Positions 3,445-9,252 of a DNA stretch of 64,000 bases are shown in pieces. The stretch is from a virus (Duplodnaviria > Caudoviricetes). The stretch lies in the IMG/VR virus record IMGVR_UViG_3300021185_002017; one strand, 5' to 3'. Both the position numbers and the translations under genes were made by a program. Below the pieces are notes generated by a model. That model searched no databases, was not told the DNA's origin, and saw nothing but the letters and a program-made list of their open reading frames with translations. Position 1 is the stretch's first letter; every line of letters begins with the position of its first letter.

Positions 3445-3840
3445 TTACAGTCGGCCTCTAGCCTTAATTTTCTTCTGTAACTCTACATGCTTTCTGCGTT
3501 TCTTTTTGGTTTTCATCCAAGATGTGTCACCACTTTCGCTGTCTACCCATGTACCTGCTCTTCTTTTGTTTTCGACTTCACGGTTCCATCTAGACTTTGC
3601 AGCAGCTTTTTTACGCTTCTTCTTAGCACTAGGCTTTTCGTAAAATTCATTCTTTGCTAGGTCTTTTTGTCTATCGTCACGCTCGAGTATTTTCTTCAAA
3701 CGCCTAATAGCACCGTTAACATCGTCGTTGCGTACTTCGACTGAAGCACCGCGAAACTGTTTTTCTTGAGGCTTATTAAAATGTCTTCTAGGTTTGTTAA
3801 ACCCTTCCTTTACACCTTTGCTCCAATTGTTGTTTTTCAT
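3445..3840 (-). CDS. rpsU: 30S ribosomal protein bS21 with N- and C-terminal extensions
   Basis: VEVRNDDVNGAIRRLKK..EFYEKPSAKKKRKKAAA core. Confidence 0.85.
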   Translation of the reverse strand: MKNNNWSKGVKEGFNKPRRHFNKPQEKQFRGASVEVRNDDVNGAIRRLKKILERDDRQKDLAKNEFYEKPSAKKKRKKAAAKSRWNREVENKRRAGTWVDSESGDTSWMKTKKKRRKHVELQKKIKARGRL

Positions 3841-8550: not shown

Positions 8551-8659
8551 TGGCCCCCACTCGTCAGTGAGGGAAGCCAACTACGTTCTAAACTTCATAG
8601 TATATCATCATATAGTACTGTGATCGGCCGTCGCCGGGCACACAGTAACGCCCTATAAT
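8551..8659. other. GC-rich cluster of four hairpins between convergent genes (terminator or ncRNA)
   Basis: TGGC..GCCA, CATAGTA/TACTGTG, CGGC/GCCG and GGGC/GCCC stems. Confidence 0.5.
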
Positions 8660-8662
8660 TGT

Positions 8663-9139
8663 TTAACTAAATTTTACTTTAGTATGGTCGTTAAGTTCAA
8701 CAGTTGCACTATTATGCTCGTGTTCTCTTACTGTAGTCTTTTGTACCCAACATCTTCCATTTGTTAATTCTTTAACAATTTCATCTGCTTTGTCAAAAGC
8801 CATTTCAGCAAATCTTTCACAACCTGTATGCGATACTACTCGCATATCAATTAGACCTTTGTCTTGTAACATTTGAATAGTTTCCATTTCTGGGTCATTC
8901 TCTGCTACTAAGTAAGTATGATCAAACATGTGCTTCAACCATTCTTTAAGTGGCTTCAAACCACCAAAGTCTACTATCCAGTTACGCTCATCAAGTTCGT
9001 CTCCACCGAAAGTAAATTCGAACTGCAAAGCATAGCCATGAATTAAATTGCAATGACTATCAGCTCGCCATTGTCTAAACGCACAACTGTGTCCAGTTGA
9101 ATGCGAATATGTTTTACCTGAATAAAATCTCTTATTCAT
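8663..9139 (-). CDS. queD: 6-carboxytetrahydropterin synthase (QueD/PTPS)
   Basis: HSCAFRQW..HCNLIHGY, VDFG, FDH, CERFA, VREH motifs. Confidence 0.9.
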   Translation of the reverse strand: MNKRFYSGKTYSHSTGHSCAFRQWRADSHCNLIHGYALQFEFTFGGDELDERNWIVDFGGLKPLKEWLKHMFDHTYLVAENDPEMETIQMLQDKGLIDMRVVSHTGCERFAEMAFDKADEIVKELTNGRCWVQKTTVREHEHNSATVELNDHTKVKFS

Positions 9140-9220
9140 TTGTATCTCCTAAATAATTAGAAGGCCATTAGTGCGGAATATTTATAGTGGGTCGATGCCT
9201 TAATGTTTCCATCCACTTGG
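9140..9220 (-). promoter_or_regulatory. structured queD leader with SD-sequestering hairpin and internal late box TATAAATA
   Basis: CTTCTAA pairs with TTAGGAG; upstream hairpin loop ATTAAGGC is complementary to GCCTTCTAAT. Confidence 0.5.
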
Positions 9221-9224
9221 TAAT

Positions 9225-9252
9225 ATTATACACGAACAATGTTCAATGTCAA
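9225..9252 (-). promoter_or_regulatory. sigma70-type promoter for queD
   Basis: TTGACA-16 nt-TATAAT. Confidence 0.7.

Follow-up and report, generated by a model that had tools for sequence, protein, structure and literature searches.

Why a phage should place a short, foldable leader ahead of a single queD-like gene, and what that leader might respond to, is the question raised by this locus. The window (the whole stretch of DNA analysed, 64,000 nucleotides) belongs to a large phage of marine origin with genes for bS21, ClpX and 12 tRNAs; the phage-encoded ribosomal protein bS21 carries extensions (3445-3840, PF01165). The queD product is placed in the QueD family by its matches to PF01242 and phrog_2389, with a score below the NCBIfam QueD cut-off. 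It and each of the 81 relatives tested have CxxxHGY rather than CxxxHGH, and in these 81 proteins the position taken by eye for the first metal-binding histidine of E. coli QueD is apparently Phe or Tyr. The best matches among cultured phages are approx. 50% identical and annotated as QueD-like, and some of them adjoin queC. The window protein probably has QueD activity. In an Rfam scan of the window, tRNAs alone reach the gathering score; four weaker matches near the locus of the queD leader are all irrelevant.

On the minus strand, positions 9161-9217 are laid out as an H-type pseudoknot with a stem P1, a two-base linker, an A-patterned loop and a stem P2. The elements of the leader, its promoter and its gene, from 5' to 3', are:

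9247-9252, minus strand: sigma70 -35 box TTGACA, which shares bases with the stop codon of the preceding ORF and is retained in the subtype of this window
9225-9230, minus strand: sigma70 -10 box TATAAT, with a predicted start near 9218
9213-9217, minus strand: 5' strand of P1, AGTGG, with a closing G-C pair
9202-9212, minus strand: loop L1, which starts AUG in the subtype of this window
9197-9201, minus strand: 5' strand of distal P2, AAGGC, the core of the anti-anti-SD proposed earlier
9193-9195, minus strand: 5' strand of the P2 core, U-C-R; R pairs with 9175 and C with 9174, and U lies opposite a mismatched C
9191-9192, minus strand: linker L2, a variable base and then the conserved C9191, a candidate ligand-pairing base
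9186-9190, minus strand: 3' strand of P1, CCACT, paired with 9213-9217
9179-9186, minus strand: TATAAATA, the late-promoter candidate proposed earlier, which equals the last P1 base plus L3; a putative promoter
9176-9185, minus strand: loop L3, eight nucleotides with A at 3, 5 and 7, then a conserved U-C
9173-9175, minus strand: 3' strand of the P2 core, Y-G-C, covarying
9166-9172, minus strand: subtype-specific insertion within P2 (5-11 nt in relatives), which may fold as a hairpin closed by C-G
9161-9165, minus strand: 3' strand of distal P2, GCCUU, its last three bases common to the anti-SD
9157-9163, minus strand: anti-SD strand, paired with the SD region
9146-9152, minus strand: Shine-Dalgarno (SD) region TTAGGAG, ahead of queD
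8663-9139, minus strand: queD-like gene, 158 aa (PF01242, phrog_2389; CxxxHGY motif)

Much of what the first-pass annotation had drawn here is present. The SD is masked by a 7-bp hairpin, 9157-9163 with 9146-9152, that has one G-U pair and a predicted energy of -6.3 kcal/mol, and the small upstream AGTGG/CCACT hairpin is the 5-bp P1 (9213-9217 with 9186-9190). The sigma70 promoter proposed for the long leader matches at 12/12 positions with a 16-nt spacer; from a start near 9218, P1 would begin at approx. +2 of the transcript, and in relatives P1 most often begins 7 nt past the -10 box. Metatranscriptome contigs from four studies span queD, with differing ends (9182, 9200, 9272 and 9355) that are uninformative on start sites, and these contigs may include DNA. 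The proposed anti-anti-SD stands in part: five contiguous pairs join 9197-9201 to 9161-9165, but its distal part could pair only across a 2-nt bulge, does not appear in the duplexfold prediction and is missing in several relatives. That earlier reading missed the P2 core, which covaries (9193-9194 with 9174-9175), and the invariant bases of the junction. ViennaRNA cannot score pseudoknots, and the window leader, folded singly, is not better than its shuffles (z -0.4 to -1.4); because of this latter result, support for the fold is drawn from relatives.

The motif was parsed in 142 of 248 queD-bearing loci (81 distinct members), a ratio that is not a frequency, as some of the loci had been fetched by the motif itself. 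Its consensus runs from P1 (5 bp, with a closing G-C) through an L1 beginning N-C-U, a variable distal P2 strand, U-C-R and N-C to the 3' strand of P1, the 8-nt L3, U-C, Y-G-C and the distal P2 partner. In the 81 distinct members, whose sequences are related so that counts are not independent, the R-Y pair of P2 is A-U in 58 and G-C in 23 with no exceptions, the C-G pair of the P2 core is C-G in 79 and U-A in two, and the U.C mismatch is kept in 80. All 71 eight-base L3 loops have A3, A5 and A7. Among the matches listed (181 distinct members), L1 starts NCU in 179, and its first base is A in 96, U in 45 and C in 40 (A in the window). In the same set, the base before the L2 C is U in 90, A in 66 and C in 25 (A in the window), and the base opposite the L2 C is G in none. 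The L2 C column is invariant in the alignment, C having been prescribed by the parse and search patterns. A compact subfamily, L076-L115 (e.g., L076:1935-1976), has a 4-bp P1 and an L3 shorter by approx. 3-4 nt, with the core unchanged.

Covariation across phage queD leaders, which had been suggested as a check, is found in both stems: 91.5% of alignment cells are paired, compared with 36-48% in slid-alignment controls, and two-sided changes occur in 10 of the 11 pairs, although the P1 part is partly circular because P1 pairing was a parse criterion. Free of this circularity are the gene-blind scans described below and the R-Y pair on the QueD protein tree. On that tree, all changes at P1-2 (10), P1-3 (14) and the R-Y pair (10) are joint, unlike those in unpaired control columns. 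Moreover, distal P2 has at least three pairs in 97% of leaders versus 42% of the shuffled control. On comparative sequence grounds, the leader is a real, strongly conserved and uncatalogued cis-regulatory RNA.

The motif is tied to one gene. Two scans of viral contigs were gene-blind, their patterns containing neither the 5' strand of P1 nor distal P2 nor any gene, and gave at least 239 matches. Among the matches listed, 237 of 239 have a matching P1 strand, though it lay outside the search pattern, and queD is the next gene in 232 (232 of the 235 that are untruncated); three further listed matches head units in which queD is second or later, and two are cut by the contig end. At L331:681-727, L380, L583 and L595, at least one unrelated ORF separates the motif from queD, and the motif still heads the unit. 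A covariance model finds one strong copy in the window and one in each of three near-complete genomes of 340-356 kb, and a DNA pattern scan places the leader ahead of two further QueD clades as well. In contrast, only two (L013 and L015) of the 66 viral loci with the closest QueD have a window-type leader, the other close queD relatives having mostly short or leaderless starts; thus, the leader is dispensable. In motif-less relatives (L001, L002, L010, L014, L021, L023, L028 and others), a composite promoter, in which a TAAATA late-type box sits within the sigma70 spacer, lies directly 5' of queD, and in many of them queD transcripts are very short-leadered or leaderless.

Outside uncultured viruses, one scan of bacterial and archaeal genomes with a one-subfamily pattern gave two matches, both inside long ORFs and not beside queD. 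Among cultured phages, no QueD of more than 60% identity and no blastn match to the leader were found, and a covariance-model search of five whole cultured-phage records gave no match. The best reading, within these limited bacterial and cultured-phage searches, is that the motif is phage-specific. A literature search returned no described queD leader motif; the supplements of two motif catalogues lay outside its scope, and the motif may be listed there.

The window leader belongs to a rare marine subtype of 14 distinct leaders, itself included. In this subtype L1 starts AUG, not NCU, so that two otherwise near-invariant bases are changed, and P2 is split by an insertion able to fold as a hairpin. 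The leaders are 83-97% identical and the QueD proteins that follow them 37-97%; in L158, a leader 96% identical to that of the window precedes a QueD with 37% identity. The SD hairpin is kept across the subtype, its last pair being A-U in the window and U-A in L067, L074 and L210. A pairing of the subtype L1 UGGA with the anti-SD was also considered; it was rejected, as it shows no covariation and would leave a 1-nt L1 across the long stem.

A second structured element follows the gene and was compared in five sequences:

8552-8653, minus strand: conserved structured element 3' of queD, a pseudoknot plus a terminal hairpin

Its counterparts lie at about 3468-3605 in L001, L010, L013 and L015. 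The element consists of a pseudoknot, with stems of 4 and 7 bp and a loop that holds a GACG-loop hairpin, then a conserved spacer and a second GACG-loop hairpin; in the five sequences, 103 of 103 cells pair and seven pairs change on both sides. It matches six viral contigs, all with the QueD clade of the window, is present with or without the 5' leader and has no Rfam match. A hammerhead or HDV-like identity was dismissed on inspection by eye, there being no GAAA core and no P3. Other GC-rich, apparently structured elements after queD, unlike that of the window, occur in L002, L014, L023 and L032 (about 3465-3640).

How the 5' leader may act on queD is suggested by the overlap between its two folds. 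In the window, P2 and the anti-SD have 9161-9163 in common, and loss of these bases to P2 would reduce the SD hairpin to a 4-bp remnant (-1.4 vs. -6.3 kcal/mol). In other subfamilies, the SD or the start codon is covered by different helices, all of them overlapping the P2 strand. In 176 main-type leaders, opening of the ribosome-binding site (RBS) has a median predicted cost of 7.2 kcal/mol compared with 4.9 in shuffles. With L3 and the P2 strand masked, this cost falls by 3.9 kcal/mol, against 2.0 in shuffles, and the fall exceeds the shuffled mean in 149 of the 176. No terminator-like site was found in the queD leader. As modelled, an ON wiring of the leader is likely, though not firm, because a crude yes/no test for pairing of the P2 strand to the RBS is at chance level (101 vs. 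96 expected) and RBS sequestration in the window alone has a z of only 1.2 over shuffles.

To our knowledge, riboswitches are rare in phages, and those reported belong to bacterial classes. Among known RNAs, the leader is most readily compared with preQ1-I riboswitches, which the first-pass annotation had found it to recall superficially. The resemblance holds for the architecture: like preQ1-I (RF00522, types I-III; PMC11625349), the motif is an H-type pseudoknot with a 5-bp P1 closed by G-C, a C (prescribed here by the search patterns) immediately before the P1 3' strand and an A-rich L3, and it stands ahead of a 7-deazaguanine pathway gene. In addition, the position of the L2 C is that of the specificity base in preQ1-I (PMC11625349). 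It does not extend to membership. The suggested comparison with the Rfam preQ1 models gave no match in the window; in particular, the RF00522 covariance model has no match in the window, whether at the gathering score or with E relaxed to 10, and none at the motif in four further motif-bearing records scanned at E up to 1. The A-tail and L1 uridine of preQ1-I are also missing. In preQ1-I, a conserved U or UU lies atop the P1 5' strand, L2 is UC (type I) or AC (types II and III), and the adenine run of L3 ends at the ligand, whereas the queD motif opens L1 with A, U or C, has an L2 of N-C with a variable N, and ends L3 in Y-U-C before a P2 that has a conserved U.C mismatch, unlike that of preQ1-I. 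Moreover, ligand binding by preQ1-I buries the SD in P2 (or acts through a terminator) and turns expression OFF, whereas the SD of the queD motif is downstream of P2 and apparently released. The queD motif also differs from preQ1-I in its occurrence in phages and in its lack of an Rfam score. For preQ1-II (RF01054) and preQ1-III (RF02680), there is likewise no Rfam match, and the comparison is of an HLout type with at least four helices there and a two-stem core here.

Three further systems offer partial parallels. THF-II (the folE motif; PMC6800512, PMC9881143) exerts translational control at the neighbouring GTP-to-pterin step; it binds reduced pterins, including dihydroneopterin (PMC6800512), and recognises the pterin ring by a conserved C plus a U (PMC9881143). 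However, THF-II has a rod-like two-helix fold, is tied to folE and acts as an OFF switch, whereas the queD motif is a pseudoknot, is tied to queD and is without an Rfam match. The T4 gene 32 operator is likewise a pseudoknot in a phage 5' leader that controls translation of the next gene, but there the gene's own protein binds and represses, and the gene is a different one (PMC10690425; compared by description, not by sequence). Glutamine riboswitches ahead of glnA in marine T4-like phages, where they are termed rare, provide a precedent (PMC9004378); these are a bacterial class borrowed by phages, whereas limited searches of bacteria and cultured phages did not turn up the queD motif.

With a probability of roughly 55%, we take the leader to be a translational ON riboswitch that senses a small molecule and belongs to a phage-specific family not yet described. 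Its features are those by which riboswitches are generally recognised, namely, a covarying structure 5' of genes of one function and an overlapping expression platform. When ligand is absent, P1 and the SD hairpin would form and queD would be OFF. A ligand with a guanine-like face would pair with C9191 between P1 and P2 and stabilise P2, which would take three bases from the anti-SD and leave the 4-bp remnant, so that queD would be translated. The pocket would thus lie at the P1/P2 junction, as judged by analogy with preQ1-I and by the lack of any G opposite the L2 C. For such a ligand, a pterin substrate or GTP is more likely than preQ1; the substrate side is favoured because of the ON logic, the exclusive tie to queD and the missing QueC. 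Candidates are dihydroneopterin triphosphate, another reduced pterin or folate, and GTP. Dihydroneopterin triphosphate is common to QueD and folate synthesis, which would give such a riboswitch a reason to exist: the phage would use the folate precursor only while its supply is ample. QueC and TGT/DpdA were undetected in three near-complete motif-bearing genomes (G002, G003 and G005; 340-356 kb), which carry folE, queD and queE-like genes; divergent DpdA proteins can escape such searches (10.1101/2023.04.13.536721). In G003, a jumbo phage, a second, divergent PTPS-family gene (128010-128357; L374) directly follows queD. A narrower proposal is possible but tentative: a new riboswitch class, so far seen only in phages, with a preQ1-I-like fold and a rebuilt pocket, which would switch translation ON in response to the QueD substrate (dihydroneopterin triphosphate or a reduced pterin related to it). 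The subtype of the window, with its changed L1 and its P2 insertion, might recognise a related but different ligand.

The same fold could serve a protein rather than a metabolite. An operator of the T4 gene 32 kind, in which the equilibrium between P2 and the SD hairpin is shifted by QueD or by some other protein of the phage or its host, would fit the exclusive one-gene linkage if it were autoregulatory; pseudoknot operators are known in phages (PMC10690425), and conserved unpaired bases can be protein contacts. We regard it as unlikely, since a near-identical leader stands ahead of QueD proteins that are only 37-51% identical, conservation is concentrated at the P1/P2 junction, and stabilisation of P2 would open the RBS, which is the wrong sign for autorepression. 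Feedback by preQ0, preQ1 or CDG through a divergent preQ1-I-type riboswitch that turns queD OFF, e.g., by transcriptional pausing, is quite improbable. It would have to accommodate the absence of any RF00522 score even at E up to 1 or 10, the missing L1 uridine and L3 adenine run, an SD that lies outside P2, and three near-complete motif-bearing genomes in which QueC and TGT were not detected, even though queD belongs to the same pathway and the H-type build, the 5-bp G-C-closed P1, the C 5' of the P1 3' strand and the 8-nt A-patterned L3 are all shared (PMC11625349).

Finally, the structure might need no ligand, the pseudoknot at the 5' end protecting the mRNA or fixing its translation rate. 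A variant of this is the early-ON/late-OFF timer of the first-pass annotation, in which a late promoter at TATAAATA would yield a short leader. For a T4-type late promoter, the start would be expected 6-7 nt downstream of the box, near 9172. P1 lies at or near the predicted transcription start in many members, boxes resembling TATAAATA precede several other genes in the window, so that the internal one could fire, and a late-type box lies inside the motif in 11 of 81 members. A generic stabiliser, however, should not be confined to queD. The perfect TATAAATA at 9179-9186 is there as described, but it is not above chance (six copies in the window vs. 8.0 expected) and is one spelling of the P1-L3 consensus, found in 14 of 181 distinct members among the matches listed. 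Late-type boxes are missing from inside the motif in most members and usually lie upstream of all of it (44 of 81 members, and 6 of 13 other members of the subtype); late transcripts from these would therefore include the aptamer. A short transcript would not be translatable, and with no further gene after queD on the same strand there is nothing for it to serve. Without a stabilising factor, moreover, the long and short leaders cost alike to open (5.8 and 6.0 kcal/mol). An internal late promoter and the timer are thus unsupported, and a ligand-independent role as a whole is very unlikely. What survives of the original switch-or-timer alternative is its ligand-sensing branch, in keeping with the conservation, the covariation, the linkage to queD and the overlap of P2 with the anti-SD.

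At approx. 55 nt, widespread among large uncultured phages, without an Rfam entry and linked to a single gene, the queD leader motif makes a strong candidate for an orphan riboswitch. Should its ligand prove to be a pterin or GTP and its action that of an ON switch, it would represent a new pairing of ligand and fold, with the logic of the known preQ1 family reversed. If the riboswitch reading is true, phages would meter the flux into 7-deazaguanines by sensing host metabolites; under the narrower substrate-sensing proposal, large aquatic phages could weigh folate synthesis in the host against the 7-deazaguanine pathway of their own.
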